DNA from: an uncultured Fidelibacterota bacterium
GTDB lineage: Bacteria > Fidelibacterota > Marinisomatia > Marinisomatales > Marinisomataceae
Length of the DNA stretch: 64,000 nt
Direction: 5' to 3'
Assembly: GCA_902629855.1 (NCBI GenBank)
Contig: CACOSI010000001.1
Location: forward strand, 91,846 to 155,845
Of the stretch, positions 2,435-43,141 are shown in pieces (position 1 is the first letter of the stretch; the number at the start of each line of letters is the position of its first letter). A model generated the notes under the pieces. That model saw nothing but the letters and a program-made list of their open reading frames with translations. It was not told where the DNA came from and made no database searches. The translations under genes were made by a program, and so were the position numbers.

Positions 2435-2441
2435 GTGAAAC
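2428..2441. repeat. 14-bp perfect palindrome GTTTCACGTGAAAC, copy 2 (spans the mnmE stop and the mnmG GTG start)
   Basis: Read directly from the sequence: g2428 tt tcacgtgaaa c2441. It contains the last base of the mnmE TAG and the mnmG GTG start codon. Confidence 0.9.
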
Positions 2442-3724: not shown

Positions 3725-3728
3725 TGGT

Positions 3729-5381: not shown

Positions 5382-5382
5382 T

Positions 5383-5523
5383 TTAAGAAGAAACTGTTAG
5401 GCGCTTGCGACCCTTTTTCTTTCTAGCCGCCAAAACCTTTTTTCCGCCAACAGACGAGTTTCTTTTCATAAAACCGTGCTTGTTTTTTCTTTTCCTGTTG
5501 CTTGGCTGGTAAGTTCTTTTCAT
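5383..5523 (-). CDS. rpmH: 50S ribosomal protein L34
   Basis: I translated 5523->5383: [46 protein letters not shown] (46 aa). This matches the L34 consensus. It is too short for the supplied ORF track. Confidence 0.9.
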
Positions 5524-5661
5524 AATTATATATTGACGAAATATAGCTCTATAAAACTACTTGTAAAACAAATAAAACAGCACAAAAGATTAAAAAAAGC
5601 TAGGTGCAAATAAAAAAAGACAGTAATGTATTTAGCACAAAAAGTGCACATGTTAATAATT

Positions 5662-5670
5662 TGTGGATAA
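5662..5670 (-). promoter_or_regulatory. perfect consensus DnaA box (TTATCCACA on the minus strand), 2 nt upstream of the dnaA ATG
   Basis: The plus strand reads tgtggataa at 5662-5670, the reverse complement of TTATCCACA. It is the only perfect box I found in the 149-nt rpmH-dnaA spacer. Confidence 0.7.
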
Positions 5671-5672
5671 CT

Positions 5673-7013
5673 ATGGAATATAAAAAATTTTGGGAAACTG
5701 CCTCTAAAGACTTGAAAACAAGCCTACCAGCACACGCATATGAGGCGTGGATCGAGACTCTAACACCCGTAGGAATAACAAACAACATACTTATTCTAGA
5801 GGCGCCAAACCAATTCGCATACGATTGGATTATTAATAATTATAACGACATAATATTGAGTGCAATTAAAGAAGTTGACAACAAGGTTCAATTAAAGGTT
5901 TCGATTGCACCCCAGTCAGAACAAAGCATTTCAGCAACCAAGCTTGATGCAAGCGAGCCAACCAAACAAAGCAACCCGGGAAGAAGAAGTAACATTAATC
6001 CCAACAACATGTTTACAAGCTTTATTGAGGGGCCAAACAATGTTTTTGCCAAAAACGCGGCTACAAGAGTAGCAGCATCCCCAGGAGAGGCAGACTTCAA
6101 CCCCCTAATAATTTACGGGGGAGTTGGCCTTGGAAAAACACACCTTTTACACTCAATTGCAAATGCGCTGATAACGGGAAAAAAACAACTTAATGTTGTT
6201 CTTGCGTCATCAGAAAAGTTTACAAACGACTTTATTGCAAGCATTCAAGAAAATAAATCTTTAGACTTTTCTAAGGTTTATAGAAAAGCAGACGTTTTAT
6301 TGATTGATGACATTCAGTTCTTTCAAGGAAAAGAGCAGACACAAGAACAGTTTTTTCACACATTTAACGAACTATATACCGCAGGAAAGCAAATTGTTAT
6401 GACAGCCGACAGGTATCCTGGAGAGATGGTTGGTCTTCAAGATAGGCTCTTGTCTAGATTTGAGTCGGGGCTTCACGCAGACATTCAGCCCCCAGACTTT
6501 GAAACAAGGGTTGCAATATTATCAACTAAAGCGAAGCAGAACAACATACAAATTCCGCCTGAACACCTAGAAAAAATAGCTTCTCATGTAAGAACAAACA
6601 TCAGAGACCTAGAAAGCTGTGTTACAAAAATATTTGCACACGCAACCCTTTCAGGAGAAACAATAAACGACGCTCTGATTGAGTCAATAATTAGGGAAAG
6701 GCTAGGAGACCAGGGATATGGACAAGCCAATATGCAAGATGTGGTGAGTGGTGTTTGTGGAATATTTTCTGTTTCGCAAGAAGAAATAGTTGGATCATCT
6801 AGAAGAAAAAACATAGCAGAGGCAAGACAGGTTGCAGCATACTTAGCAAGAGAGGTTTTAGATATGCCGCTAAGTGAAATTGGTATGCACCTTGGGGGCA
6901 GAGACCACACTACAATTATGCACGCACATAAAAAGGTCTCAGAAATGTTAAAAAAAGACGATAAATTTAGAAGAAGAGTAGATATTATCTATAACGAATT
7001 AAATCTTAGTTAG
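5673..7013 (+). CDS. dnaA: chromosomal replication initiator DnaA
   Basis: AAA+ Walker A GGVGLGKTHLLHSI, Walker B LLIDDIQF, and the C-terminal DNA-binding region …GGRDHTTIMHAHKKV. I chose ATG 5673 (MEYKKFWETASKDL…, typical domain I) over the track's GTG at 5604. Confidence 0.93.
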   Translation: MEYKKFWETASKDLKTSLPAHAYEAWIETLTPVGITNNILILEAPNQFAYDWIINNYNDIILSAIKEVDNKVQLKVSIAPQSEQSISATKLDASEPTKQSNPGRRSNINPNNMFTSFIEGPNNVFAKNAATRVAASPGEADFNPLIIYGGVGLGKTHLLHSIANALITGKKQLNVVLASSEKFTNDFIASIQENKSLDFSKVYRKADVLLIDDIQFFQGKEQTQEQFFHTFNELYTAGKQIVMTADRYPGEMVGLQDRLLSRFESGLHADIQPPDFETRVAILSTKAKQNNIQIPPEHLEKIASHVRTNIRDLESCVTKIFAHATLSGETINDALIESIIRERLGDQGYGQANMQDVVSGVCGIFSVSQEEIVGSSRRKNIAEARQVAAYLAREVLDMPLSEIGMHLGGRDHTTIMHAHKKVSEMLKKDDKFRRRVDIIYNELNLS

Positions 7014-7021
7014 AGGAAATT

Positions 7022-7465
7022 ATGGCAAAAGGAACAGTAAACAAGGTAACATTAATAGGAAGACTCGGACAAGATCCAGAAATAAGGTTTACCGGAGAAG
7101 GAAATGCGGTCGCAAGCTTCAGTGTAGCAACAAACGAGTCCTGGAAAGACAAAGACGGCGTAATGCAAGAAAGAACCGAGTGGACAAAGTGCACAGTTTT
7201 TGGCCCATCAGCAGAAAAGTATATTCAACCCTATGTTAAAAAGGGAACGCTAGTATATGTTGAAGGCTCGCTCAAAACAGACAAGTGGCAAGACAAAGAA
7301 GGAAACGAAAGATATTCAACGGGCGTGGTAGCAAACAACTACGGCGGGGTACAAATTCTGGGGGGCGGAGAATCATCAATGGACACATCCGGCGGAATGA
7401 ACCAAACACCAAAAAAGGAAGAAAACCTTGACCAAACCGTCGAAGATGACGACCTTCCTTTTTAA
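7022..7465 (+). CDS. ssb: single-stranded DNA-binding protein
   Basis: OB-fold N-terminus VNKVTLIGRLGQDPEIRFT, a Gly-rich linker, and the acidic tip DDDLPF. Confidence 0.93.
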   Translation: MAKGTVNKVTLIGRLGQDPEIRFTGEGNAVASFSVATNESWKDKDGVMQERTEWTKCTVFGPSAEKYIQPYVKKGTLVYVEGSLKTDKWQDKEGNERYSTGVVANNYGGVQILGGGESSMDTSGGMNQTPKKEENLDQTVEDDDLPF

Positions 7466-8086
7466 GTGAAGAAGTCTCACCCAAGAAGCAAGACAACAAG
7501 GAGGATTCTTGGCTATTTTGCTTCGTTTCTCTGCTTTCTTCTTACGAGCTTTACTTCGCGAGGCCAAGAAAACCTACCAAAAAAAGGACCTTACATAATT
7601 GCGCCAAACCACATTGATGATGTTGATCCCGTTCCACTAACAGCAGCTATTGGAAAACCAATTACATACCTCATGGCACAAGATCAAGTGGTTCTTCCTT
7701 GGTATAAAGCTTGGGGCCCGTGGTCATATGGAGTTCTCTTGGTAAACCGCTCAAAGATACAATACTCCTCAATGAAAAAAGTTCAAAGTCAAATAAAAGC
7801 TGGAGAGATTGTTTGTATTTTCCCGGAAGGAACAGTGAAGGGAGAGGGGCTAAAAGAGGGAAAAAGGGGCGTAGCTTTTTTTGCAAAGAAAAACGACATC
7901 CCTATAATTCCTGTTGGAATAACAGGAACCCGTGGTATAATAGAAAAAATTCGTAAATTAAAAAAACAAAAGGTACATGTTGAGATAGGCAGGCCGATTT
8001 ATCCAAACCAGGCGAGAGAGCAAAAAGAGCTCACCGAAAAGGTAATGAAAGAAATTAAAAACCTGCTACCAACTGATCACCATTGA
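7466..8086 (+). CDS. 1-acyl-sn-glycerol-3-phosphate acyltransferase-like (PlsC/LPLAT family)
   Basis: HX4D motif (APNHIDDVDP) and the FPEGT motif. The GTG start directly follows the ssb stop, so the start is uncertain. Confidence 0.75.
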   Translation: MKKSHPRSKTTRRILGYFASFLCFLLTSFTSRGQENLPKKGPYIIAPNHIDDVDPVPLTAAIGKPITYLMAQDQVVLPWYKAWGPWSYGVLLVNRSKIQYSSMKKVQSQIKAGEIVCIFPEGTVKGEGLKEGKRGVAFFAKKNDIPIIPVGITGTRGIIEKIRKLKKQKVHVEIGRPIYPNQAREQKELTEKVMKEIKNLLPTDHH

Positions 8087-23252: not shown

Positions 23253-23295
23253 TTAATGATAAATTGTAATTTATGACGTGAGAATCATTTACCAA

Positions 23296-24522
23296 ATGAA
23301 TACTTTTAAAATTTTAATATTTATATCAATTTTCAACCTCTTTGGCTGCGCCGCAACAGGCTCGTTGCTGGTTCCATTAGAGTCAATAGAGGCGCCTAGT
23401 GGAAAATATGGCATAGGGACTCAGGTGTATTTTTGGGAAGACAAAGAAAGAGGAGAAGTTTATACAACTGATCCAACGGATTTTAGAGAATTAATGGTTC
23501 AAATCTGGTACCCAGCTAATAAAAATGCAGCATACCAAAAAACACCACATGTTACTTTTCCAGAAAAATCAATTTCCATCATTGCCAAATCAGCTGGACT
23601 GCCAACAAACTTTGGAAAACATGGAATACAGCTAAAATCAAATTCAGTACAAGGCCTATCCCCCGTATCGGATGGAGAGTTTCCATTAATCTTGTTTTCT
23701 CACGGAGATGGAGGGCTATTGACACAGAACACTTCGCAGGTAGAAGAACTGGTCAGCAATGGGTATGTTGTAATTGCGTGTAATCACACATATAATGCAA
23801 GCATCTCTTTTGATAAAAAGGGCGAACCAGTGCTATACAAACAGAATGTAAAGTGGAACGAACAAGCACAATACCATAAGAAGTATTATACCAACAAGCT
23901 GATAAATTACAGATACCAAGACCTTGCGTTTCTTTTAAGCCAACTAAAAAATGATTTTTTGCAAAACGGACAAAAAAATCCCTACAAAGAAATTATTGAC
24001 TTTAATAATGTAGGAGCCATGGGTCACTCAATGGGTGGAGGCACAACCTACGTCGGGATGCTAAAAGACAAAAATATTAAAGCCGGAGTAGCTTTTGACG
24101 GCTGGTTTTACGGCTTACTAGAAAAAGATATATTATCAGATACCAAAAAACCCTTTCTTCATCTTGGTCAAGAACAGTTTTTAGATACCGAAGTTATTGG
24201 AGACATTAATGGTAGCAAATCAGGAAAAGAAAACTTTAAAATCTATAATTCTATGTTAAAAAACAATAAAGAGTCGTACGGTGTTTATATCAAAAACAGC
24301 TTACATTATTCTTATACAGATTTAAAGCTAATTTACGATCCTGACAGGCCATTGGCGCTACCGCTAAAAAGCCTTGGAGAGGTTGACAAAGACTTGGTTG
24401 ATAAGGTTATGGATAAAACAATATTAAATTTCTTTGATTATACTTTAAAAAAGGATCAATTCGACTTTGAAAATTTGAACACATACAATGATCAGGTTAT
24501 CTACAAGACCTACCCAAACTGA
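23296..24522 (+). CDS. secreted alpha/beta-hydrolase lipoprotein, PAF-acetylhydrolase/lipase-like
   Basis: Signal peptide plus lipobox (NLFGC), PLILFSHGDGG, and the nucleophile elbow GHSMGG. I chose ATG 23296 over the upstream GTG at 23278. Confidence 0.6.
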   Translation: MNTFKILIFISIFNLFGCAATGSLLVPLESIEAPSGKYGIGTQVYFWEDKERGEVYTTDPTDFRELMVQIWYPANKNAAYQKTPHVTFPEKSISIIAKSAGLPTNFGKHGIQLKSNSVQGLSPVSDGEFPLILFSHGDGGLLTQNTSQVEELVSNGYVVIACNHTYNASISFDKKGEPVLYKQNVKWNEQAQYHKKYYTNKLINYRYQDLAFLLSQLKNDFLQNGQKNPYKEIIDFNNVGAMGHSMGGGTTYVGMLKDKNIKAGVAFDGWFYGLLEKDILSDTKKPFLHLGQEQFLDTEVIGDINGSKSGKENFKIYNSMLKNNKESYGVYIKNSLHYSYTDLKLIYDPDRPLALPLKSLGEVDKDLVDKVMDKTILNFFDYTLKKDQFDFENLNTYNDQVIYKTYPN

Positions 24523-24626
24523 CAAGAATTTTTTCAAAAACTAGTGCAATCACAAAAAACGCCGAAAATTAAAATACCAAAAAAGTATTGACATCTACGT
24601 AAACTATCATCAATTTAGTTGAAATT

Positions 24627-24659
24627 AGCATTTGAAAGGGTACGGACCCTTCGAGTGCT
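24627..24659 (+). promoter_or_regulatory. imperfect hairpin in the 247-nt spacer upstream of the outer-membrane operon
   Basis: The core is AAGGGT-ACGG-ACCCTT (24636-24651, perfect 6-bp stem, 4-nt loop), flanked by AGCA…TGCT. There is no T-tail and its function is unknown. Confidence 0.35.
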
Positions 24660-24769
24660 TTGTATATATATTGACGATTTACACATATATATAATAGGGT
24701 AAGAAGTAAAATGAAGATAAATAATAAACGAAAATTTGTATATAAAAATACTCATTTGGAGGTAGAATA

Positions 24770-27700
24770 ATGAGAAAACTACGTATGTTAATTGCGCTGG
24801 TTATCCTACCAACGATGATGTTTGCTCAATCAACAACCGCGAAATTGGCGGGTGTGGTTGCAGATGCTGATGGTAATCCATTGGTTGGTGCGAACGTTGT
24901 TGTGGAAGGTTCTAACCTTGGTGCAGCTACCGATGAACTCGGTAGATACTATATTCTTGACGTTCCTGTAGGTAGTTATGATCTAAGAGCCGAGTATATT
25001 GGTTATACTACTGTTGTTGAGTCTGGGGTAAGAACATCAGTTGGTTTTACAACCACTGTTGATTTTAATCTAGATGTTGCAGCTGTAGCAGGTCAGGCAG
25101 TTACAGTAACTAGAGAAAGACCATTAATTAATCCAAATGCAACAAATACAACTCGAGTAGTTGATAAAGAGTTGATTGATGCGTTTGCTGTTAGAGGGGT
25201 TTCAAATATTGTAAACTTACAAACAGGGGTTGTTAATGGATTTTTCCGAGGCAGTAGAAGTGGTGACAGTCGTTACTATGTTGACGGTGTACCTGTTAAA
25301 GACGTCTACAGCGGAGGAAACTTATTAAACGGTAATTCACAAGCAGCACTGCAGGAAGTCTCAGTACAAACTGGTGGGTTCTCTGCTGAATATGGTGGTG
25401 CTAATGGTGGTATCGTTAACATTACAACAAAAACAGGTGGATCAGAGTGGTCATCAAGAGTTGGGGTAATTACCTCGCTTGGTTCTGATGCAAGCACAGA
25501 TCCCGACAAACTATATTCTGATGGATACAACAATGTCAACTTTGACTTTGGTGGTCCAATCAGCGATAATGTAAAAGTATATTTATCTGTAGAAAGTAGA
25601 GAAAAAGGTGGAGACGTATCTTATAGTTACTTCCCACAAATGGATGCAACTGTATTGCAAGATGCAGATGGAAACTTCATTGCACCACCTTCTGACTACT
25701 ACAGTGATGGTACCGATGGACTAGTTTATGGAAATGATGCCAATGGTAATAAAATTGCACATATTGAAGAAGTTGTCAGACAAAAAGATATTTATGACGC
25801 TTCACTAGGTAGCGACACTTTATATGTTGTTTATAGTAATTATAGACGTATGTATGGTCAGCAGCCACAAGATGACAATGAACGTATTACTATTAATGGT
25901 AATATGACCATGGATTTTGGTCCTTTAAGACTAAAACTAGGTACACAAGCATATGATTACGAAGGACATAGTTATAGCTGGAGTAGAGTATATGGTGGAA
26001 CGGACGGTTCATTTATTAATGAAGCTGACTTCTCCATGGGCTACTTAAATGCTAGATATACAATCAGTCCTCTATCATATATTAAAGCTTCACTGTCTCA
26101 GCAAACTTATGAGACAACAAGTGGTAATGAAAATTACTTACATGATATTGAAGCATATGGAAGAAGATCATCTACGTTTGGTGATCCAAATTATTTCAAA
26201 AGAGATAATAACTTCTTTAACCCAATTAGCCCAGATGAATTCTTTGGGGTATCAGGGTATGGAAGTCAAACAACCTCTTACGACACAAGAAAATCAACAA
26301 CTAACACAATTAGTTTTGATTACACGAACCAAATTGGTTACAATGAGTTAAAAATTGGTGGTTCTATTGACAACCATGAAATTACTCGTTATGGTTTAGG
26401 TGCTTCTGGTGTTGCTAGAGCAATCTTCCAAGTAGATAGATTTGGAAACCAAGATGGTGTAGTTACTAACGATGAAATTATTGCTGTAGGAAGTGACCCA
26501 GCTGACTGGAAGTTTATTAACTACAGATCATTATATGTAACAAATCTTGGTTATAACATTTATGGTGATGAGTGGAACGGAACATACAATCAAGATGATC
26601 ATATGTTAGCTCCAGCAGAACCAACACAAACACGTTTTTACGTTCAAGATAAGTTAGAGTTTAAAGACGTTGTTGTTCAACTTGGTGTATCATTCGAAAC
26701 TATTGACACTGGTGCTATGGCTCCAGATTCTGATGGTGACGGTTATGGTGACTCAGACGGTTTCAACAACCTATACTTTAACAGACAGCGTGTTGATAGA
26801 AATGGTGATGGTAACGGTAACTTTGTTTGGAAGAAAGTTAAAAAAGAAACCGCTACACACCCAAGAGTAGGAGTTTCATTCCCAGTATCCGATCGTACAG
26901 TATTCCGTGCGAATTACGGAACACACTGGCAATCAGTTCCTATGTCGTTTTTATACCTTTCAGATTCACAGCTATCTGCTGACATCTTAGCAGGTAATGC
27001 TACTGCATCTGAAAACCCTGCTCTTAAACCAGAGCGTTCAACTCAGTACGAAATTGGTATTGAGCAACGTATTGGAGCTTTTGCTTCATTAAAGGTTGAA
27101 GGGTTTTATAAGGAAAGTAAAGACTATTTAACGCTTGCTAATCGTACAGAAGCGTTCACCAACACTGGTGGTGCAGATACTCAGCAAAACTGGGCGCAAT
27201 ACCAAAATGGTGACGTTATGGTATCTCAAGGATTAACAACAAACTTTGAGATGCGCAGAACTAGAGGTTTATATGCGCAAGCAAACTATACATACTCAGA
27301 AGCTAGAGGTACTGGTTCCTATGGTTCACAGAACTTCTACATTACATGGATTGGTACTGATGATGGTTATCCAAAAGCGATGAACCTATTAGACTATGAC
27401 CAAACTCACACTGCAAATGTAATTCTTGACTGGAGATCACCAGATGCTACTGGTGCTTTAGCAAACACAGGATTTAATGCTGTAATGAGTTTTGGTAGTG
27501 GTACTCGCTATACACCAGCACAAATCTATAGTACAGTTTTTGAGAACAGATGGGAATTCCCAGAAGGTCCAGTAAACTCAGGTACTATGCCTTCATATAC
27601 TAACCTTGACTTAAGAGTTGATAGACAAGTAAGCCTTGGCGGATTAAACGCTAATGTTTATGTATCTGTTTTCAACGCTCTTGATTCAGAACAAGTAAAT

Positions 27701-27895
27701 GATGTTTACCGTGGGACAGGTAACGTAGCCGAAGATGGTTGGGTTGCTACTGAAAGTGGGCAGCAATGGCTTGCCAATAGATTAGCTCAAAACCCTGACG
27801 TTGATGCAGCTGCTATGTATCAGGATAACCTTGCGTTTCCTGCTAGATGGGGTGCTCCAAGAACTGTAAGGGTTGGTTTAAACATTAGTTTTTAA
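24770..27895 (+). CDS. TonB-dependent outer-membrane receptor with N-terminal carboxypeptidase-regulatory-like domain
   Basis: 1041 aa. It has a signal peptide (…MMFAQS), a CarbopepD_reg-like segment (KLAGVVADADGNPLVGANVVVEG…GRYYILDVPVGSYDLRAEYIGY), a plug (…RGSRSGDSRYYVDGVPV…), a long barrel, and the C-terminus …VRVGLNISF. GGAGG SD at 24758-24762. Confidence 0.85.
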   Translation: MRKLRMLIALVILPTMMFAQSTTAKLAGVVADADGNPLVGANVVVEGSNLGAATDELGRYYILDVPVGSYDLRAEYIGYTTVVESGVRTSVGFTTTVDFNLDVAAVAGQAVTVTRERPLINPNATNTTRVVDKELIDAFAVRGVSNIVNLQTGVVNGFFRGSRSGDSRYYVDGVPVKDVYSGGNLLNGNSQAALQEVSVQTGGFSAEYGGANGGIVNITTKTGGSEWSSRVGVITSLGSDASTDPDKLYSDGYNNVNFDFGGPISDNVKVYLSVESREKGGDVSYSYFPQMDATVLQDADGNFIAPPSDYYSDGTDGLVYGNDANGNKIAHIEEVVRQKDIYDASLGSDTLYVVYSNYRRMYGQQPQDDNERITINGNMTMDFGPLRLKLGTQAYDYEGHSYSWSRVYGGTDGSFINEADFSMGYLNARYTISPLSYIKASLSQQTYETTSGNENYLHDIEAYGRRSSTFGDPNYFKRDNNFFNPISPDEFFGVSGYGSQTTSYDTRKSTTNTISFDYTNQIGYNELKIGGSIDNHEITRYGLGASGVARAIFQVDRFGNQDGVVTNDEIIAVGSDPADWKFINYRSLYVTNLGYNIYGDEWNGTYNQDDHMLAPAEPTQTRFYVQDKLEFKDVVVQLGVSFETIDTGAMAPDSDGDGYGDSDGFNNLYFNRQRVDRNGDGNGNFVWKKVKKETATHPRVGVSFPVSDRTVFRANYGTHWQSVPMSFLYLSDSQLSADILAGNATASENPALKPERSTQYEIGIEQRIGAFASLKVEGFYKESKDYLTLANRTEAFTNTGGADTQQNWAQYQNGDVMVSQGLTTNFEMRRTRGLYAQANYTYSEARGTGSYGSQNFYITWIGTDDGYPKAMNLLDYDQTHTANVILDWRSPDATGALANTGFNAVMSFGSGTRYTPAQIYSTVFENRWEFPEGPVNSGTMPSYTNLDLRVDRQVSLGGLNANVYVSVFNALDSEQVNDVYRGTGNVAEDGWVATESGQQWLANRLAQNPDVDAAAMYQDNLAFPARWGAPRTVRVGLNISF

Positions 27896-27916
27896 TAAAA
27901 AGGTAAAGAGGTAAAT

Positions 27917-30900
27917 ATGAAAATCTTAAAAAACATTACCGCTTTCACAATGGTGATGACCTTGCTTCTAGTTTCAGCTGAAGCTAGAGAAACCAAAAAG
28001 GTTTCTAATTTCAGCGGGTCATCCTTTGTTGAATCCAGTGGTACGTTTGATGGTAATCGTATATACGCCGATGTAACCAATAATGGTCTTTTCTTAGACT
28101 ATCACATTTCAGGTGATTCAGCTCTAGAATGGCCTAAGGGTACAGGCGTACACTCTATCTTCCAATCAGCATTATGGATGGGAGCTACAGTGGACGGTAC
28201 CATTAGAACTATCGTTGGTGATTATACACAAGATATGGGTCCAGGTCCTTGGGGCGGAGATCCATTGGCAGCGGTACACAGAATATATAAGGTTAATAAA
28301 AGCATGTTGGATGACCCAGCAGCACATGACGACTTCCAAAACTGGCCTGTAGACTACGGGGCACCATGGGTAGACGTTGATGGTGATGGAGCATGGAATC
28401 CGTTACCAGCTGGTCAAGACCACCCAGAGTTTATTGGTGACCAAGTACTATGGTTTGTTAGTAATGATGGTGACCCAGCTTATAAGCTGAACTTTGGAAC
28501 ATCTCCAATGAATGTTGAGATTCAAACAACCATGTTTGGTTATGACAGAATTGATGCAATTGGAGACATGTTATTTATTAAACAATTAGTTATTAATAAA
28601 GGTGACGATGACCTTGTAGATACATACATGGGGCTATGGTCTGACCCTGACTTAGGAAATGCGGGTGATGACCTTGTTGGATGTAACGTTGAGCTAGGTA
28701 TGGGATATGTCTGGAACGATGGTCCTGACACATACTATGATAACCTAGACATTGGTACACCTGCAGCCGGATATGACTTCTTCCAAGGACCTAAAGTTCC
28801 TTGTGATGACCCAACTGATCCAGTTGAGTGTCCAGCACAGGGTGCAAAGATGTTTGGAACATACTATCCAGGTGAGAAAAACCTTAAAATGTCATCGTTT
28901 GCGTTCTACATTAATGGAGACGCAACTTACACTGACCCTGCTGATGAAACAGAAGGATACTACTATCTTCAAGGTTTAAGAAAAGATGGTAGTCCATATC
29001 CAAATGAAATCGCAGGTGATTTATACGATCAGAAATTCTGCTTCTATGGAGATCCAGCATTAGATCATGGTACTACCAACCCAGTTGATGGTAACTATGC
29101 TTCTGCTGCAGACAGAAGATTCTTGATGAGTGTTGGTCCATTTACTATGGCATCAGGTGACTCACAAGAAGTTGTGTTTGGTATTTTCCACGCAGCAGGT
29201 GGTGACGCATTATCATCAGTAGCTTATTTGTCACAGGTTGACCAATTAGCTCAATCAGCTTATGATAATGATTTTGATCTTCCAGAACCTCCACCAGCAC
29301 CTAATGTAACTGCATCTGCATTTGACAACGAGATTGTTATTATGTGGGATGGTGTTGCAGAAGATTACAATGAAGAAAGTTTCTTTGTTGATGATGCTGG
29401 TAATACTACCAATTACACTTTCCAAGGATACAATGTGTATCAATACGAAACTGCATCTGGTGCAGGAGATATGGCAAGAATAGCTACATATGATATTGTA
29501 GACGGTGTTACAGAGATTATTGATACAGTCTTTGATACCCAATACAATGAGTATATTGCTAGAAGAGTTCAATTCGGATCTGACTCAGGTCTTGCAAGAC
29601 ATGAGGTTGTTAGCCGTGATGCGCTAAATGGTAATAGTAAACTTATTACTAACAGATCATACAACTTTGCTGTAACAGCATACGGTTATAATGAGTTTGG
29701 TGTTCCAAAAACATTCGAAAGTAATCCTAAGCACTTTACAATGAGACCAGAACAGCCAAATACAATGATGATGGGTGACAATTCAGCAGCTCCTGGAGAT
29801 ATTGTAACAGCTGACCATGACGGTCCAGCACAGGGTTATGTTGAAGTAACTATGGTTGACCCAATGTCAATGACCGGTGATGCTTACAGTGTGACATTTG
29901 ACGATGTATTCCCAGATGGAACACCGGGTACAAACTGGACATTAACTAATACTACAACTGGTGAGGTTCTTGAAGCTAACAATCCAGTGATGGGTGGTGT
30001 AAACCAGCTAACAGGTATTAATGTTGGTGTTGGTGGTACTCCAGTATTCGACGGCTTCCAAGTCGCAGTTTACGGACCACAAGAAGACCTTGTTGCTGTT
30101 GAGGAATGGGAACATGGATGGAAAGAAAATGCTGTATTGAGAGATACTTCTGTTTCTTATCTACCTCCAAGTTTAGGTCGTACAGGTTATATTATTGAAA
30201 ACAGAGCAGGTGAAGCATACATGCAGCCTTACAATAGAGACTTCGATAGATTTAACTATTGGGAATCTGATGACGTAGAAATTGACTTTAGTGTTGAAAC
30301 ACTTGGTTGGGACTACTTATCAGAAGCTGTTAATGCATATGTTCCATTTGCGATGTACAGACACAATTTCGGAACTGGTACCAAAGATCCACTATTTGCT
30401 GGATACTGGGAAAGTGACGGAATTGCAGGTTGGTCAAATCCTGGTGACGGTGTAAGATGGTCAGGACCAGTTTACGGTGCACCAGCATGGGAACCAATTT
30501 ACAGTTTTGTATCATGGGGAGGATATGATTACGGATTCCTTAGTGATGCAGATTATATTGCAATTAACAATCTTGCCAACTCAGGTGGTTGTGGATGGGC
30601 GTCCAGTGGATACTGTGACAACGTTACAACATCTGGTGCAGGAATCGGTTATCCATATGTAACAGCTACACTATTTACTGACTACTTAGGTTCAGGCGTT
30701 GTGCCTACCGCAGCTGGTCATGCTTCATGGGGTAGTGGATTTGCAACAGCTAGTTCTGTCGTATTCCGTATGGCTAAACCAATTTCATCTAGAGATACCT
30801 TTACCTTTACTACAGATGGAATTAACATGTTAGCTAACGACTATGATATTGATAGAGTTACTGTATGGCCAAATCCATATTATGGATATAATCCAGAAGA

Positions 30901-31168
30901 AAGAGACGCACTCGATAGACGTGTGATGTTCAGTCACCTTCCAACAGAAGGTCCTGCAACAATTCGTATCTTTGCACTGGATGGAACTTTAGTAAGAACT
31001 ATACACCACAATGATACAGGATCACAGCACACATACTGGGACATGAAGAACAATTTCGAATTACCAGTAGCTAGTGGTATGTATGTGGCACATGTAGAGA
31101 CTAACCACGGGGAGAAAATCCTCAAGTTAGCTGTTATTCAACCAGAACAACGTCTCGACGTTTATTAA
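27917..31168 (+). CDS. large secreted protein of unknown function with FN3-like module and T9SS-type C-terminal sorting domain
   Basis: 1083 aa. It has a signal peptide (MVMTLLLVSAEA), a ~450-aa N-terminal region I cannot assign (it contains DVDGDGAWNP), a Pro-rich linker plus an FN3-like segment (PEPPPAPNVTASAFDNEIVIMWDG…FQGYNVYQYE), and the CTD listed as the next feature. AAGAGG SD. Confidence 0.75.
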   Translation: MKILKNITAFTMVMTLLLVSAEARETKKVSNFSGSSFVESSGTFDGNRIYADVTNNGLFLDYHISGDSALEWPKGTGVHSIFQSALWMGATVDGTIRTIVGDYTQDMGPGPWGGDPLAAVHRIYKVNKSMLDDPAAHDDFQNWPVDYGAPWVDVDGDGAWNPLPAGQDHPEFIGDQVLWFVSNDGDPAYKLNFGTSPMNVEIQTTMFGYDRIDAIGDMLFIKQLVINKGDDDLVDTYMGLWSDPDLGNAGDDLVGCNVELGMGYVWNDGPDTYYDNLDIGTPAAGYDFFQGPKVPCDDPTDPVECPAQGAKMFGTYYPGEKNLKMSSFAFYINGDATYTDPADETEGYYYLQGLRKDGSPYPNEIAGDLYDQKFCFYGDPALDHGTTNPVDGNYASAADRRFLMSVGPFTMASGDSQEVVFGIFHAAGGDALSSVAYLSQVDQLAQSAYDNDFDLPEPPPAPNVTASAFDNEIVIMWDGVAEDYNEESFFVDDAGNTTNYTFQGYNVYQYETASGAGDMARIATYDIVDGVTEIIDTVFDTQYNEYIARRVQFGSDSGLARHEVVSRDALNGNSKLITNRSYNFAVTAYGYNEFGVPKTFESNPKHFTMRPEQPNTMMMGDNSAAPGDIVTADHDGPAQGYVEVTMVDPMSMTGDAYSVTFDDVFPDGTPGTNWTLTNTTTGEVLEANNPVMGGVNQLTGINVGVGGTPVFDGFQVAVYGPQEDLVAVEEWEHGWKENAVLRDTSVSYLPPSLGRTGYIIENRAGEAYMQPYNRDFDRFNYWESDDVEIDFSVETLGWDYLSEAVNAYVPFAMYRHNFGTGTKDPLFAGYWESDGIAGWSNPGDGVRWSGPVYGAPAWEPIYSFVSWGGYDYGFLSDADYIAINNLANSGGCGWASSGYCDNVTTSGAGIGYPYVTATLFTDYLGSGVVPTAAGHASWGSGFATASSVVFRMAKPISSRDTFTFTTDGINMLANDYDIDRVTVWPNPYYGYNPEERDALDRRVMFSHLPTEGPATIRIFALDGTLVRTIHHNDTGSQHTYWDMKNNFELPVASGMYVAHVETNHGEKILKLAVIQPEQRLDVY
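30863..31165 (+). other. C-terminal T9SS type-A / FlgD-Ig-like sorting domain of the 1083-aa protein
   Basis: VWPNPYYGYNPE…ATIRIFALDGTLVRTIHHNDTGSQHTYWDMKNNFELPVASGMYVAHVETNHGEKILKLAVIQ. This follows the (V/Y)PNP … iyD..G..V … WD … sGvY … K pattern of T9SS CTDs. Confidence 0.6.
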
Positions 31169-31186
31169 GGATAAGGAGAATATAAA

Positions 31187-32236
31187 ATGAAAAACACATT
31201 TAAAATCTTCCTTGGATGCGCAGTCTTATTTTCAGCACTAACAGCTGGTACGGTAAGATCACAGGGTACTGCTGGTGCAGCACAGCTTCTGATACCGGTA
31301 GGTGCAGAAACTGTAGCTCTTAGCGGAACAAACGTTGGTACGGTTGCTGGGGTTGAGGCATTATTTACTAATGTCGCAGGTCTAGCAAGAGTAGGCTCTG
31401 GTATACAAGGAACAGTTTCAACCACTGCTTACATTGCTGATATTGATATCATGCATGCAGGTATGGTTGCAGCTATGGGAGAAACAGGTACCTTTGGTAT
31501 GACTATTAAATCTCTTGATTTTGGTGACATACCAAAAACCACTTCATTTGCTCCTGAGGGAGATGGTCAAACATTCTCTCCAAGTTTCTTTACTGCTACT
31601 GCCGGTTTTGCACGAGCTTTCTCAGATCGTGTAAACGTAGGTATAGCTGCGAAGATGGTTTCTGAAACCATTGAGGAAACTTCAGCAACTGGTTTTGCAT
31701 TCGATGTTGGTGTCCAATATCGTTTTCCTAATCAGCCGCTTACCTTTGGTGTAGCGATGAAGAATGTAGGAAGTAGAATGCACTATGACGGTATCAATCT
31801 TGATATGGAAATGGTGCCTGGAGAATCTGAATCAGGTTCTTCATCTGAAGAGTTTAGAATTGTTGCTGACAACTTTGCGTTGCCAACAAGTCTTGATTTA
31901 TCAGCTACTTACTCCCTATTAAATAACTTAGACGTAAGTGCAGTTTTCACTAATCACTCTTACCAAGTAAATACAATGGCACTAGGTGCTAAATATATGC
32001 TTGGTTCAGCTTGGTTTGGAGCAGCAACAACAATGACTGTTGGTGACGATGATCAACCAACAGGCGTTTCTGATGCAGACTGGGATGAGTGGAGTGGCAC
32101 AAACTGGGGTGTTTCCCTAGGTGCTGGTGTATCTGTACCTGTCGGTGACTATATGATGCATGTTTCTTATGCAATGAGAACAGCAAATGAGTACTTTGAT
32201 GATCATAGTACAATGCAAGTCACATTTGATTTCTAA
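31187..32236 (+). CDS. outer-membrane beta-barrel, PorV/PorQ-like (FadL-fold) family
   Basis: 349 aa with a signal peptide. The N-terminal motif GAAQLLIPVGAETVALSGTNVGTVAGVEALFTNVAGLA resembles the PorV-family opening (g..fL.i..gaR..amGga…NPAGLA). It has alternating beta-strand character and a terminal …VTFDF. AAGGAG SD. Confidence 0.55.
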   Translation: MKNTFKIFLGCAVLFSALTAGTVRSQGTAGAAQLLIPVGAETVALSGTNVGTVAGVEALFTNVAGLARVGSGIQGTVSTTAYIADIDIMHAGMVAAMGETGTFGMTIKSLDFGDIPKTTSFAPEGDGQTFSPSFFTATAGFARAFSDRVNVGIAAKMVSETIEETSATGFAFDVGVQYRFPNQPLTFGVAMKNVGSRMHYDGINLDMEMVPGESESGSSSEEFRIVADNFALPTSLDLSATYSLLNNLDVSAVFTNHSYQVNTMALGAKYMLGSAWFGAATTMTVGDDDQPTGVSDADWDEWSGTNWGVSLGAGVSVPVGDYMMHVSYAMRTANEYFDDHSTMQVTFDF

Positions 32237-32272
32237 AACTGTTTCTTAAATAGTTTAGGATTGAGAAAGATG

Positions 32273-32301
32273 AAGGGCTCAGAAATGAGCCCTTTTTCTT
32301 T
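32273..32301 (+). terminator. Rho-independent terminator closing the outer-membrane operon
   Basis: AAGGGCTCA-GAAA-TGAGCCCTT: a perfect 9-bp stem with a GNRA-type loop, followed by TTTCTTT. Confidence 0.85.
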
Positions 32302-32445
32302 ACCTATTATCAGTTTTGTTGATTAATATTTCCCCATGAATAAAGATGACAAAATACTCTTATTAGTTTTATTCTTTGGATTATTTGGTTATCCGATATG
32401 GTGGCTTATTATGTATATAATATTACCGTTATTTAACTAGATATT

Positions 32446-33180
32446 TTATTTAACTTGATTTTCAAAAAGCTGGATAATATTACTGTAGAGTAATTCTTCA
32501 GGTATGTTTTGTCCAAGAAAGTATCTACCCTTGCTATCATCAAAATGTATCTCCCAATGAAGATGAGCACCCCTTTCATTTCTGAGTGCCCCACTAGATG
32601 TTCCAGTGTTTCCAGAAAAGCCAATTATATCTCCCTGAGCAACCCTTGTTCCAGGCTTAACTTCATCTGGTATTGAAGAAAGGTGCGCATATACAGTAAC
32701 TGTTCTAAATTTTTTAGTAATACCATATCCATGATCTATAACAATTGATTTACCTAAAAGTATAAAATTATAAATATCCTCCGGAGTTTTCTTAAGCTTT
32801 TCAGTTGTTAGCAGAAGCTCGTTATATGTATTTATATCAACATCCTCATGTTGATTGTTGCTTCTAATAACAATCCCACCATAAACTGCTTTTATAGGGT
32901 AATTCAAGGGCGAAGAGAAATCAATACCTTCGTGAATTCCATTCCTATATTCCCTGAGCGCGTTTGGTAATAAATTAGTGTACTCCGGTACACCGTATTC
33001 ATCTGTGGGTAAAATAATTTTGTTATCTAGTTCTGAAAAGTGAAGATATGTGTCTTGATCAATATAAAAAATATAACCCTCTCTGCTTGTTTGAGATGTT
33101 TCTAAACTGCTAGTTGGGGCAGCACAAGACGACAGTGTTAGGCTTAAGATTATTATTAAATTCTTATTTTTCATCATCAA
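32446..33180 (-). CDS. M23 family metallopeptidase lipoprotein
   Basis: Lipobox LTLSSC and the M23 motifs HEGIDF and GAHLHWEIH. Confidence 0.8.
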   Translation of the reverse strand: MMMKNKNLIIILSLTLSSCAAPTSSLETSQTSREGYIFYIDQDTYLHFSELDNKIILPTDEYGVPEYTNLLPNALREYRNGIHEGIDFSSPLNYPIKAVYGGIVIRSNNQHEDVDINTYNELLLTTEKLKKTPEDIYNFILLGKSIVIDHGYGITKKFRTVTVYAHLSSIPDEVKPGTRVAQGDIIGFSGNTGTSSGALRNERGAHLHWEIHFDDSKGRYFLGQNIPEELLYSNIIQLFENQVK

Positions 33181-33721
33181 AATTAATTATATAGTTAACA
33201 CTTTTAAATGTAAGGCTTATTTTTTTTAGTTTTTTTTCTTCTTCGTTATACCAAACTTTAATTATATCGCTATTTAAAATAACATTATTGATTCTATTTT
33301 TTCCTTCAAATTCATTTTTTTCGTTTATATCAAATCTGTACAACTTTGTTTCATTGTCTTTTTCTGCTATTTCGTAAAACAAAAATCTTACTTTTACTGC
33401 AAGGTTATCAAGAAGATAAAAATCATCAATCCAAACATCTTCATCAAATTCTAATTCTTTATTTTCAATCATTTTATAGAAAATATTCTCGTCACCAAAA
33501 TTTTGATCATCATATTCAATATCTTCTCCCAGTAAATTAGAACCAAATCCATCTGAGGTCACCTCAATTTCATCACCATCAATTTGTATTGCTATTGATT
33601 GATTTAAAAAGGATGAAAAGAGATCATTTTCTCCAACACCTATTGAAACATTTCTTTTAATTGCCTCTTCTTGGGCAATGATAAAAGAAAAAAACAAGAA
33701 AATATGTAATAGATACTTCAA
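33164..33721 (-). CDS. secreted acidic hypothetical protein
   Basis: 185 aa with a signal peptide (FLFFSFIIAQEE). I recognise no family. It is wedged between mgtE and the M23 peptidase with overlaps. Confidence 0.5.
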   Translation of the reverse strand: MKYLLHIFLFFSFIIAQEEAIKRNVSIGVGENDLFSSFLNQSIAIQIDGDEIEVTSDGFGSNLLGEDIEYDDQNFGDENIFYKMIENKELEFDEDVWIDDFYLLDNLAVKVRFLFYEIAEKDNETKLYRFDINEKNEFEGKNRINNVILNSDIIKVWYNEEEKKLKKISLTFKSVNYIINFDDEK

Positions 33722-40748: not shown

Positions 40749-41900
40749 ATGAAATCTTCAAAAATAAAAAAATACCTAATTATATTTTTATTATTTTTAT
40801 CTTCAATTTTTGGATTTAACAACCAGGGAATAAAGATCATAAAAAATGATTTAGTTTTAGGATACGTTAAAACCATTGAAAACAACCGTTTAATATCATT
40901 AAATAGTTTTTCTACAGTACTTGGATATAAAAATTTTGTTAATGACAAGACAGAAAAAATAGTTGTAAATATTGGCGGAAATAAAATCAAAGCAACAAAC
41001 GGTATAACTTTTGTTTTGTTTGACGATAAGGTTTACCAATTTCCCAACAAAGTAATTGTTAAAGACAATAACTACTTTATTTCAACTTCATCATTACTAA
41101 AACTAATTAACTCTAATAAATCATCATCTAATTTTTCTTTAAAAGATAATGAAATTGTTATAAGTGAAGTATTAAATAAAAAAACTGAAAGAGTTGATTT
41201 AACGAATGAAAAGAAAAAGTGGAAATTCTCAACAATTGTGATTGATCCAGGACATGGCGGGAAAGATCCTGGGGCAGTTGGATATAGAGGAACTTTGGAG
41301 AAAGATATTGCCCTAGATGTTGCTAAGAGACTAGAAAAAAAAATCTCAAGAAATATGGATGTAAAAACTGTTCTTACAAGAGATGAAGATATTTTTCTAA
41401 AACTTGATGAAAGAAAAAAAATAGCTAACGATAATAACGGAAGTCTTTTTATTAGCATTCATGCAAATGCAGCTTCGGACAGAAGGGCTAGCGGTTTCGA
41501 AACTTTCTTAATTGGTCCAAATAAAAATGAAGCCGCTGTAAGGGTTGCAACAAGGGAAAACGCAGTATTGGAACTTGAAGGTTTTTCTGGAAAAAAGCTT
41601 ACAAATGAAGATTTAATTCAAGCTACTATTGCCCAAAGTGCATTTGCTTCAAAAAGTGAACAATTTGCAGCACTCGTACAAGAGGAAATTGGCAAGAGAG
41701 TTACTAGTCGTAACAGAGGAGTTAAGCAAGCGGGTTTTTATGTATTATGGGGGGCCTCAATGCCAAACGTTTTGGTCGAGTTAGGCTTTATATCAAATCT
41801 TTCTGAGGAAAAAAAATTGAGGAGTTCTCAATATCGCGAAACTTTAGCAACGGCAATTTTCAGGGCAGTTGAAAAATATGAAAAAACTTTGAACCAATGA
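40749..41900 (+). CDS. N-acetylmuramoyl-L-alanine amidase (Amidase_3, AmiC-like)
   Basis: 383 aa with a signal peptide. The catalytic domain has IVIDPGHGGKDPGAVG…EKDIALDVAKRL…LFISIHANA…SGFETF. Confidence 0.88.
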   Translation: MKSSKIKKYLIIFLLFLSSIFGFNNQGIKIIKNDLVLGYVKTIENNRLISLNSFSTVLGYKNFVNDKTEKIVVNIGGNKIKATNGITFVLFDDKVYQFPNKVIVKDNNYFISTSSLLKLINSNKSSSNFSLKDNEIVISEVLNKKTERVDLTNEKKKWKFSTIVIDPGHGGKDPGAVGYRGTLEKDIALDVAKRLEKKISRNMDVKTVLTRDEDIFLKLDERKKIANDNNGSLFISIHANAASDRRASGFETFLIGPNKNEAAVRVATRENAVLELEGFSGKKLTNEDLIQATIAQSAFASKSEQFAALVQEEIGKRVTSRNRGVKQAGFYVLWGASMPNVLVELGFISNLSEEKKLRSSQYRETLATAIFRAVEKYEKTLNQ

Positions 41901-43141
41901 TTAATGACACATTAGAATACTTATATAATCTTCATAATAGAGGTATAAAGTTAGGGTTAGATAACATCGAATCAATTTTAAGTGAATGTAAAAATCCTGA
42001 AAGTAACTTTAAATCAATACATATTGCTGGCACAAATGGCAAAGGATCTACAGCTTCAATACTGGCTAAACTTTTTCAAAATAACTATAAAAAGGTTGGC
42101 CTCTACACCTCTCCCCATCTAATACGATTTAATGAAAGAATAAGAATTAACGGCAAGCCTATATCGAATAAAGAAATAATAAGGTTTACTAGTGAACACA
42201 GAAATTTTATTGATCAAAACTCAATTACTTTTTTTGAAGCAACAACTGCGATGGCTTTTGATTTTTTTTCAAAAAATAAAGTTGATATTGCTGTGATTGA
42301 AACTGGACTAGGTGGAAGATTAGACTCAACAAATGTTCTTAAACCTGAGCATACAATAATTACTGAAATAGACTTTGACCACACTCATCTTTTAGGAGAA
42401 ACAGTTGAAGATATTACAAGAGAAAAATGCGGTATTATTAAGGATAAAACACCAAACATTACAATAAACTCAGAAGAAAAAATTAAAAAAGTTATCAAAA
42501 CCTTTTCTGAAAAAAATAACACAAAAACTGACTTTTTATCTAAAAAAGAAATTAAAAACATAGATCAATCAAAAGATACAATGAAATTTGAATACGGCAA
42601 TCAAACATATAAATTACCACAAAGTGGTTCATATCAAGCTCAAAATGCCATACTTGCGATAAAAACTTATAAGAAAAGTAATATAAATTTTCTCGAAAAA
42701 GATATTCAAAAAGGCCTAGACAATTGGTATTGGCCCGGAAGAATGCAGATTATGAAAAAAAATTTTTTTTACGATGTAGCCCATAATTCATCTGCAGTAA
42801 AGATTTTGGCAAATGATTTAAAGGATATATATAACTGTAAGCCGATCGGTTTGGTTGTCATGAAAAATGATAAAATTAAAAATGATATAGTTAAAATTTT
42901 TAGTGAAGATTTTCATTCTCTCACAATTTCATCAATTGACTCCAAAGATATACTTGATAAAGAAAAAATTAAAAGTATGAAAAGCTTAACACGTTTTGAC
43001 TATAATGAAAATTTAGCAAGAGCTCTATATTCATTAGACCAAATTAAGACAAAAAGACCAAAGGTTGTTTTTGGCAGCCATTATATTGCAAAACAGGTAT
43101 TTAATTATTTTGGTTTTTCCTTTGACAAAGGGATGATATAG
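41897..43141 (+). CDS. folC: folylpolyglutamate synthase / dihydrofolate synthase
   Basis: 414 aa in the Mur-ligase family, with the P-loop HIAGTNGKGST. Confidence 0.88.
   Translation: MINDTLEYLYNLHNRGIKLGLDNIESILSECKNPESNFKSIHIAGTNGKGSTASILAKLFQNNYKKVGLYTSPHLIRFNERIRINGKPISNKEIIRFTSEHRNFIDQNSITFFEATTAMAFDFFSKNKVDIAVIETGLGGRLDSTNVLKPEHTIITEIDFDHTHLLGETVEDITREKCGIIKDKTPNITINSEEKIKKVIKTFSEKNNTKTDFLSKKEIKNIDQSKDTMKFEYGNQTYKLPQSGSYQAQNAILAIKTYKKSNINFLEKDIQKGLDNWYWPGRMQIMKKNFFYDVAHNSSAVKILANDLKDIYNCKPIGLVVMKNDKIKNDIVKIFSEDFHSLTISSIDSKDILDKEKIKSMKSLTRFDYNENLARALYSLDQIKTKRPKVVFGSHYIAKQVFNYFGFSFDKGMI

Follow-up and report, generated by a model that had tools for sequence, protein, structure and literature searches.

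What kind of outer-membrane device is encoded by a locus in which the gene of a TonB-dependent transporter (TBDT) is followed, instead of by a susD-type gene, by the genes of a very large secreted protein and of a beta-barrel protein? This question is raised by a 64,000-nt stretch of DNA of an uncultured Fidelibacterota bacterium (contig CACOSI010000001.1 of assembly GCA_902629855.1, positions 91,846 to 155,845 of the forward strand), referred to below as the window. An earlier reading of this stretch (the initial annotation) had drawn attention to three genes, here called the triad:

24770-27895, plus strand: gene 1, TBDT, 1041 amino acids (aa), open reading frame as placed in the initial annotation
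27917-31168, plus strand: gene 2, secreted surface protein of an unnamed family, 1083 aa, about 115 kDa
31187-32236, plus strand: gene 3, outer-membrane beta-barrel of the PorV/PorQ family, 349 aa

We give roughly even odds (a probability of about 0.5) to the reading that the triad is a SusD-independent outer-membrane nutrient-uptake operon of the Marinimicrobia and other non-Bacteroidota phyla of the Fibrobacterota-Chlorobiota-Bacteroidota (FCB) group, in which the gene 2 protein is held by a PorQ-like barrel. The closest loci were found in single-cell amplified genomes (SAGs) and metagenome-assembled genomes (MAGs) of the Marinimicrobia (SAR406, Neomarinimicrobiota, Fidelibacterota), including Marinisoma.

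Conserved Synteny and Joint Replacement of the Triad

Synteny was assessed for 79 loci from species-representative genomes, with each count limited to loci with sufficient flanking sequence. A TBDT gene is located directly upstream of gene 2 and on the same strand in 57 out of 62 loci, a gene for a PorV-like protein directly downstream in 61 out of 65, and the full triad, with median gaps of about 30 nt, in 47 of the 51 loci that have both flanks. This arrangement holds down to an amino acid identity of 27-31%, in MAGs labelled Calditrichaceae/Caldithrix (Calditrichota) and Ignavibacteria. The three genes are syntenic across phyla. Several genomes carry more than one triad or additional copies of gene 2.

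In the loci L044 and L059 the triad is more divergent, with amino acid identities to the window of 52% for gene 1, 39% for gene 2 and 44-46% for gene 3, whereas the flanking genes (purL, purA, an upstream hydrolase gene, MgtE and the prolyl-tRNA synthetase (ProRS) gene; 64-81%) are as similar to those of the window as in other relatives. Nucleotide identity amounts to 72-74% as far as window position 24506 and returns to this level from about 32495 or 33718 onwards. The break points, given by L044:4600-13650 and L059:4520-14800 versus window 24506-33718, bracket the operon including its promoter-like element and its terminator (listed further below). Window-like flanks around a divergent triad imply that the three genes were inherited and replaced as one cassette. 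This cassette replacement suggests that the operon is under diversifying selection, imposed by phages or by substrate range.

In the clade of 43-50% identity, ExbB/ExbD had been suspected among the conserved neighbours of the triad, but by reading these seem to be unrelated housekeeping genes; the neighbours in this clade are probably an aroQ-like gene and genes encoding membrane proteins, an RND/MMPL-type protein and a Cu-ATPase.

A second conserved gene pair is situated a few kb from the triad in L024 (4306-7875), L026 (14599-18136), L027 (11989-15460) and about 12 other loci of the Marinimicrobia. By reading, it encodes a shorter TonB-dependent-receptor-like protein of 776 aa and a lipoprotein-like protein of about 397 aa with beta-helix-like repeats.

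Gene 1 Encodes a TonB-Dependent Transporter Outside the SusC Family

Judged by its domains and motifs, gene 1 is a TonB-dependent transporter with canonical importer features. A signal peptide is followed by a CarboxypepD_reg domain (aa 26-101, nt 24845-25072), a plug (aa 125-214) and a barrel (aa 468-1041), all of which score above the Pfam cut-offs (plug PF07715, 26.3 bits, cut-off 23.9; 22-strand-type barrel PF00593, 78.4 bits, cut-off 27; CarboxypepD_reg PF13620). A TonB-box-like motif, V-VT(A/R)ERPLI (aa ~108-120, nt 25091-25129), is situated ahead of the plug, after the N-terminal extension. This motif and those of the plug were found conserved across 59 homologues, and the C-terminal residue is Phe. 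Plug, barrel and TonB box agree with the identification of gene 1 as a TonB-dependent receptor in the initial annotation.

Gene 1 does not encode a SusC/RagA protein, since it reaches 35.3 bits on TIGR04056 (cut-off 368.25) with its N-terminal domain alone aligning, and it fits no curated TBDT subfamily of NCBIfam. SusD/RagB was not matched in Pfam and NCBIfam scans of genes 2 and 3 and of ten flanking open reading frames (ORFs). Both results are in line with the earlier statement that the locus is not a classical SusC/SusD pair.

Gene 2 Encodes a Large Putative Surface Protein of an Unnamed Family

Gene 2 starts with a predicted Sec signal (aa 1-23): in the N-terminus MKILKNITAFTMVMTLLLVSAEA|RE, n-, h- and c-regions are discernible by reading, and a helix was modelled by AlphaFold2 (AF2) at aa 2-20. 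A first AF2 run on 19 close homologues gave a pLDDT of 50 and was discarded; the model used here was computed from an alignment of 70 diverse homologues and depicts an all-beta multidomain protein (pLDDT 88.8, pTM 0.77). A conserved beta-sandwich domain of about 410 aa (the N-domain; aa 41-450, nt 28037-29266) ends in a long helix and is followed by a Pro-rich linker, an FN3-like domain (aa 463-610), a second beta-sandwich (aa 620-735) and a variable domain (aa 740-975). The C-terminus consists of a predicted C-terminal domain (CTD) of T9SS type (T9SS, type IX secretion system), likewise a beta-sandwich (aa 980-1075, nt 30854-31141), and a conserved tail of 8-10 residues. The CTD is the best-conserved segment, with 90-94% identity among close homologues versus 45-86% elsewhere.

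Gene 2 has neither a match in Pfam 2025 nor a family model in NCBIfam 2026, and all database names encountered for its relatives are "hypothetical protein". The family is nevertheless large: an exhaustive search of 1.84 billion representatives returned 6851 clusters at 50% identity for E<=1e-3 and 1718 for E<=1e-30, and 533 matching stretches occur in the scanned species-representative genomes. When the family profile was compared to PDB sequences, three chains only were matched, with PorZ (E 0.002) and PorU (E 0.013) scoring best, each by way of its CTD. Foldseek also returned PorZ as the top PDB match of the gene 2 model and matched PorU, both partially, and found no full-length relative in PDB and BFVD (TM-score at most 0.2). 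Further partial matches comprise the non-catalytic N-terminal super-sandwich of enzymes of the glycoside hydrolase types GH94, GH116 and GH15, macroglobulin, and arrays of FN3 and immunoglobulin (Ig) domains; an archaeal S-layer protein is among the matches as well. The initial annotation had recognised an FN3-like module and a T9SS-type CTD in an otherwise unannotated protein, a description that the modelled beta-sandwiches, the CTD matches to PorZ and PorU and the missing Pfam match support.

In spite of these CTD matches gene 2 does not encode PorZ: on NF052228 it scores 14.1 bits versus a cut-off of 260 with the tail alone aligning, and the Foldseek comparison of the model to PorZ (5m11) gives a TM-score of 0.10-0.14. 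PorU/Peptidase_C25 is not matched at E<0.1 in Pfam and NCBIfam. The residues D243, G247, D252, D271, P380, D399 and G407, i.e., Asp, Gly and Pro, are invariant in the family, and no Cys or His occurs in the invariant or at least 90% conserved columns of the alignment of 70 diverse homologues, so that a PorU-type cysteine peptidase can be discounted. A catalytic domain was not recognised in gene 2.

Past the last CTD strand, window positions 31142-31165 (aa 1076-1083) encode a family-conserved Q...RLD and a terminal aromatic residue (…IQPEQRLDVY). The aligned chains of PorZ and PorU stop within 2-3 residues of the strand equivalent to the last CTD strand of gene 2. The tail beyond the CTD may be a family-specific contact to the barrel.

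Direct alignment of the metagenome paralogue P0140 revealed that its N-domain is split at the loop of aa 297-304 by an insertion of about 560 aa. This insertion is composed of cadherin/Big_9 modules and an M12/M43-like Zn-metallopeptidase, and P0140 ends in a canonical Por_Secre_tail CTD. In the metagenome paralogues P0146, P0151 and P0192 the first ~300 aa match gene 2 and similar Big_9/cadherin modules are present, in case of P0146 together with an M43-like match. Paralogues with the gene 2 N-domain pass PF18962 and PF13860 (33-41 bits, cut-off 27). Since paralogues carry a peptidase insertion within it, the N-domain appears from these alignments to behave as a scaffold able to present an enzyme.

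Gene 3 as Putative Anchor of Gene 2

Gene 3 encodes a protein with a Sec signal and a C-terminal Phe. It passes the PorV family model NF033709 (PorV_fam; 120.7 bits, cut-off 90) and Pfam DUF5723 (35 bits, cut-off 26.8) and remains below the cut-offs of the equivalog models, among which PorQ (NF033711; 83.4 bits, cut-off 220) scores highest, followed by PorV (NF033710; 44.2 bits, cut-off 250) and PorV2 (42.4 bits, cut-off 325). Its assignment as a PorV-family barrel is therefore retained, with the closest resemblance to PorQ.

In Porphyromonas, PorZ is anchored via PorQ and PorU via PorV (PMC5562754), and the CTDs of PorZ and PorU are retained (PMC11285876). By analogy, gene 3 most likely provides a dedicated, stable anchor for the CTD of gene 2 instead of a transient shuttle, since it is PorQ-like, the CTD of gene 2 is both PorZ/PorU-like and the best-conserved segment of the protein, and gene 3 almost always follows gene 2. 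Shuttle and anchor had both been proposed for the barrel, and it is the anchor that gains specific support from the PorQ-like barrel and the PorZ/PorU matches of the CTD.

Transcription Signals and Expression Signature

The genes of the triad are separated by 21 nt (27896-27916, between genes 1 and 2) and 18 nt (31169-31186, between genes 2 and 3). Their Shine-Dalgarno (SD) cores, GGAGG at 24758-24762 for gene 1, AAGAGG at 27906-27911 for gene 2 and AAGGAG at 31173-31178 for gene 3, are each located 6-8 nt ahead of the ATG. The co-oriented layout with its short gaps and strong SDs could thus be confirmed with exact coordinates, and the rarity of strong SDs in the rest of the window was reproduced as well (SD core of at least 5 nt in 4 out of 45 other ORFs). 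An SD of at least 5 nt is retained in relatives for gene 1 (44/57), gene 2 (34/42) and gene 3 (34/37). Three further elements delimit the transcription unit:

24588-24617, plus strand: promoter-like element TTGACA - 17 nt - CAATTT, from an upstream alignment of 8 genomes and kept in relatives
24628-24658, plus strand: stem-loop of 12 bp in the 5' leader, predicted by RNAalifold
32272-32301, plus strand: intrinsic terminator closing the operon, with a stem-loop at 32272-32295 (10-bp stem with 5 GC pairs, 4-nt loop) and a T-rich tail

The terminator, a 10-bp stem with T tail, closes the three genes as initially described. The element at 24588-24617 is called promoter-like solely for its match to the consensus, and a simple sigma-70 scan did not flag it. 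The leader stem-loop starts about 10 nt downstream of this element. Of its 12 pairs, 8 show compensatory changes according to RNAalifold across 12 relatives; the share of paired cells is 92.4% versus 31-66% in slid controls, and the covariation score was reached by none of 500 shuffles. No Rfam family matches this stem-loop. Hairpins at the 5' terminus stabilise the mRNAs of some abundant outer-membrane proteins, and by analogy the leader stem-loop may be an mRNA-stabilising or regulatory hairpin.

Codon usage sets the triad apart from its neighbouring genes in a manner that translational selection would produce. GGT accounts for 65% of its 258 Gly codons, compared to 38-41% elsewhere and 12% in dnaA, so that the GGT preference initially noted for the receptor region relative to dnaA holds for the triad taken together. 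Furthermore, the triad prefers CGT, CCA, TTC, TAC and ATC besides GGT and avoids ATA, AGG, GGC and CCC (p 1e-3 to 1e-14 versus neighbouring genes). Slow evolution is typical of highly expressed proteins. In ordinary relatives, amino acid identities are 86-90% for the TBDT and 86-91% for the barrel, versus 71-83% for gene 2 and 72-84% for purA, MgtE and ProRS.

Since codon bias, conserved SDs, the covarying leader hairpin and slow evolution all fit, the triad is, as far as its sequence features tell, probably highly expressed. The high-expression signature proposed at the outset is in this way strengthened by the retained SDs and by a TBDT and a barrel that evolve more slowly than the flanking housekeeping genes. 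In metatranscriptomes of the deep chlorophyll maximum, Marinisoma TonB-dependent receptor transcripts are among the abundant functions, gene 1 not being singled out (PMC13096325), and Marinimicrobia TBDTs, again with gene 1 not singled out, were detected in Atlantic metaproteomes (PMC5776962).

Proposed Mechanism and Competing Interpretations

Under the uptake reading, gene 1 would serve as the energised import channel. The gene 2 protein would be exported by Sec and then, by means of its CTD, across the outer membrane via the type IX pathway. The uncleaved CTD would be bound non-covalently to the gene 3 barrel, in the manner of PorZ on PorQ and PorU on PorV, and this anchoring would tether the ~115-kDa all-beta protein at the cell surface beside the transporter. 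There it would capture a macromolecular or oligomeric substrate and pass it to gene 1, whereas paralogues with an inserted Zn-metallopeptidase would process the substrate instead. Gene 2 would thereby correspond in function to SusD and the Bacteroidota surface lipoproteins, or to TbpB of Neisseria. While the identities of the domains, the unity and conservation of the operon and the signature of expression are observed, the steps that we infer are export by the T9SS, a CTD that stays on the barrel, physical association of gene 2 with the transporter, and capture of the substrate. Since a canonical importer precedes gene 2 in almost every genome and the two are swapped jointly, a bipartite receptor appears most economical.

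In its most complete form, which we advance tentatively, the proposal describes a tripartite machine of Marinimicrobia, Calditrichota and Ignavibacteria: a TBDT, a PorQ-like barrel and, kept on this barrel by its uncleaved CTD, a capture protein of ~115 kDa from a new fold family. A T9SS attachment-type module would have been co-opted for uptake in place of SusD or a lipoprotein. In the ocean, this machine would rank among the most strongly expressed parts of the SAR406 envelope, and it would be passed between lineages as a cassette.

Export by a T9SS presupposes components encoded elsewhere, as none of the core genes for SprA/Sov, PorK/L/M/N, PorU and PorV is located within the window and ORFs of SprA size are missing from the fetched loci, each of which covers only about 19 kb. 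In SAR406 genomes, Por-CTD proteins number up to 24 (PMC5596340), and CTD proteins are reported to co-occur with T9SS genes (PMC11285876).

Several observations weigh against the uptake reading. With 16.4 bits, gene 2 stays below the cut-off of 23 on TIGR04183, and PF18962 (Por_Secre_tail) is not matched. Marinimicrobia are absent from the phyla listed in a review of the T9SS (PMC11285876). The CTDs of paralogues within one genome are more alike than the remainder of the proteins in L062, but not in others. The structural matches of gene 2 are weak (TM-score 0.1-0.2) and uninformative with regard to the ligand, and its role as the substrate-capturing partner of the receptor is inferred from a single kind of evidence, the conserved operon structure. 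In addition, gene 2 paralogues without TBDT or barrel occur at L036, L049, L055 and L072, and in the one genomic context that was retrieved for it the metallopeptidase paralogue is not adjacent to a TBDT. It follows from these lone paralogues that the N-domain is not obligately receptor-linked.

The best surviving alternative, which we nevertheless regard as unlikely, is that genes 2 and 3 form a surface coat, i.e., an S-layer-like sheet or an adhesin, and that the TBDT is linked to them by mere co-expression of major outer-membrane proteins. A large all-beta protein with Ig/FN3 arrays and matches to an archaeal S-layer protein and to macroglobulin-type folds would suit such a coat, as would the signature of high expression and a gene 2 in which neither a ligand-binding nor a catalytic site was identified. 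T9SS-secreted S-layer proteins exist in Tannerella, and cassette replacement combined with a faster evolution of gene 2 is typical of exposed surface antigens and phage receptors. However, co-expression can hardly account for a TBDT gene that is found immediately upstream in 57 of the 62 loci, in several phyla and with gaps of about 30 nt, an arrangement that points to functional coupling. The TBDT is also swapped along with genes 2 and 3. Moreover, multiple divergent triads and paralogues per genome are more reminiscent of substrate-specific loci.

It is distinctly improbable, in our view, that genes 2 and 3 belong to the T9SS machinery itself, as a divergent counterpart of the attachment sub-complexes PorZ-PorQ or PorU-PorV that processes or attaches other cargo, with the TBDT merely adjacent. 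As in porU-porV, the gene of a large CTD protein precedes that of a PorV-family barrel, the CTD matches PorZ and PorU best, and the barrel scores best as PorQ. Machinery of this kind is difficult to reconcile with a protein that fails the PorZ equivalog (14 versus 260 bits), does not match PorU/Peptidase_C25 and belongs to a family without invariant Cys or His, which excludes a C25-type sortase, and equally so with the multiplicity of paralogues within genomes, the presence of a variable domain and the insertion of a peptidase in some versions. The attachment complexes of P. gingivalis are far fewer than the T9SS substrates, about 6 per 2000 (PMC5562754), and this scarcity contrasts with the strong expression signature of the triad, whose linkage to a TBDT is moreover conserved.

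Very improbable, finally, is an Oar-like TBDT that works outwards and exports gene 2 for docking on the barrel in a self-contained, T9SS-translocon-independent manner: gene 1 does share the architecture class of Oar (N-terminal CarboxypepD_reg, ~1000-1100 aa), the lineage is streamlined and inheritance of the three genes is strictly joint, but its TonB box, plug and barrel are those of a canonical importer, canonical T9SS CTDs are present in close paralogues, SAR406 genomes are rich in Por-CTD proteins, which are reported to co-occur with T9SS genes, Oar is mechanistically an unsettled precedent, and a folded beta-rich protein of ~115 kDa is an unlikely TBDT passenger.

Comparison with Known Systems

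With regard to the uptake reading, a close functional parallel is provided by SusC/SusD (RagA/RagB) and the utilisomes of the Bacteroidota, which likewise combine a TBDT with a CarboxypepD_reg-like N-domain and one or more surface partners in an operon and occur as multiple paralogous loci. SusC/SusD pairs are among the most highly expressed outer-membrane proteins, in which they resemble the signature of the triad. Unlike SusC/SusD, the surface partner of the triad is not a lipoprotein but a protein of the Sec/signal peptidase I type with a predicted T9SS-type CTD, and a PorV-family barrel is added.

TbpA/TbpB and HpuA/HpuB also pair a TBDT with a co-transcribed partner for the capture of large ligands that is surface-exposed, faster-evolving and antigenically variable. 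This partner differs from gene 2 in being a Slam-/Lol-dependent lipoprotein with neither barrel anchor nor T9SS signal, and in belonging to an unrelated fold and phylum.

The combination of a large CTD-bearing protein and a PorV/PorQ-family barrel is known from PorQ-PorZ and PorV-PorU of P. gingivalis, a likeness that includes CTD retention insofar as the CTD of gene 2 would be retained. In contrast to these pairs, which are low-copy machinery, the triad is in an operon with a TBDT, multi-copy, variable and seemingly highly expressed. In SprB-SprF, the gene of a cargo with a type B CTD has downstream of it that of its own outer-membrane anchor, a PorP/SprF-like barrel (PMC9143113), a layout comparable to the one proposed for genes 2 and 3. 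Unlike in SprB-SprF, the CTD of gene 2 appears type A-like and the barrel belongs to the PorV/PorQ family; neither type B CTD nor PorP/SprF is among the Pfam and NCBIfam matches of the triad proteins at E<0.1.

Oar of Myxococcus xanthus is required for the secretion of PopC (PMC6434023). By architecture only, gene 1 can be likened to Oar as a TBDT of the CarboxypepD_reg-plug-barrel type, ~1000-1100 aa in length and tied to the fate of a secreted protein. Oar differs in not being encoded together with a CTD protein or a PorV-like barrel.

No description of the triad was found in literature searches on Marinimicrobia/SAR406 in conjunction with T9SS or TonB. New are the combination and the protein family of gene 2, whereas the kinds of components (TBDT, T9SS-type CTD, PorV-family barrel) are known, and so is the principle of a cargo that has its barrel anchor next to it, from type B CTDs and PorQ-PorZ. 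Among the uncultured heterotrophs of the dark and low-oxygen ocean, SAR406/Marinimicrobia belong to the most abundant, and the operon looks like their principal high-expression outer-membrane uptake device. If the uptake model holds true, the triad represents a SusD-independent alternative to the paradigm of the polysaccharide utilization locus of the Bacteroidota, PorV/PorQ-type barrels serve as dedicated anchors outside the secretion machinery, and the operon is a marker of substrate acquisition by SAR406 for metaproteomics and metatranscriptomics.

Chromosomal Context and Base Composition

The window comprises the chromosomal dnaA region (539-8086) with the gene set classically found at an origin, namely mnmG, mnmE and yidC (minus strand) and dnaA (plus strand, 5604-7013), and the triad is located about 18 kb from dnaA. 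A purine-biosynthesis block (purL, purA) is situated in between, and genes encoding an M23 peptidase, MgtE, ProRS, enolase, Rho, release factor 1, DnaE, LigA and CarB follow downstream of the triad. With core genes on both sides, the triad is embedded in core genes. Matches to the DnaA box are enriched nowhere in the window, and the sign of the local GC skew tracks gene orientation.

Directly upstream of the operon, 23278-24522 (plus strand) encodes an alpha/beta-hydrolase resembling platelet-activating factor acetylhydrolase and PETase, with a lipoprotein-type signal (FNLFGC). This gene keeps its place in close relatives, including L044 and L059, and a functional link to the operon is possible.

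The M23 peptidase gene (32446-33180, minus strand) faces the operon in convergent orientation and is retained next to it in 32 loci. Also close by are an Amidase_3 gene (40749-41900, plus strand) and a Mur-ligase-like gene (41897-43141, plus strand). Exogenous muropeptides sustain the phylum's only cultured member (PMC11652737). Peptidoglycan fragments (muropeptides) are a conceivable candidate substrate of the triad, peptides or proteins and glycans being conceivable as well.

The composition of the triad had been described as setting it apart, with 40-53% G+C in counted lines. The direction of this difference was confirmed but its size was overstated: the genes of the triad have 39-42% G+C versus 36-38% to the left and 28-33% to the right. 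GC3 is 0.26 in the triad, 0.30 to the left and 0.21 to the right, and the GC1 and GC2 of the triad are 0.52 and 0.44. The triad proteins contain much Gly, Ala, Asp and Thr but little Lys and Ile, and the raised G+C at codon positions 1 and 2 is due to this amino acid composition. Foreign origin, which had been offered alongside high expression, was consequently dropped: GC3 is ordinary, the excess is confined to positions 1 and 2, and the flanks with purL, purA, MgtE, ProRS and the dnaA region are housekeeping genes that are syntenic in relatives.

Despite housekeeping genes on both sides, G+C, and GC3 in particular, drops clearly from left to right across the triad (window 1-32000 versus 33000-64000). 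A chimeric assembly as the cause of the drop in G+C at about 33 kb was rejected, since the same asymmetry and the same gene order are found in 13 independent SAGs and MAGs.

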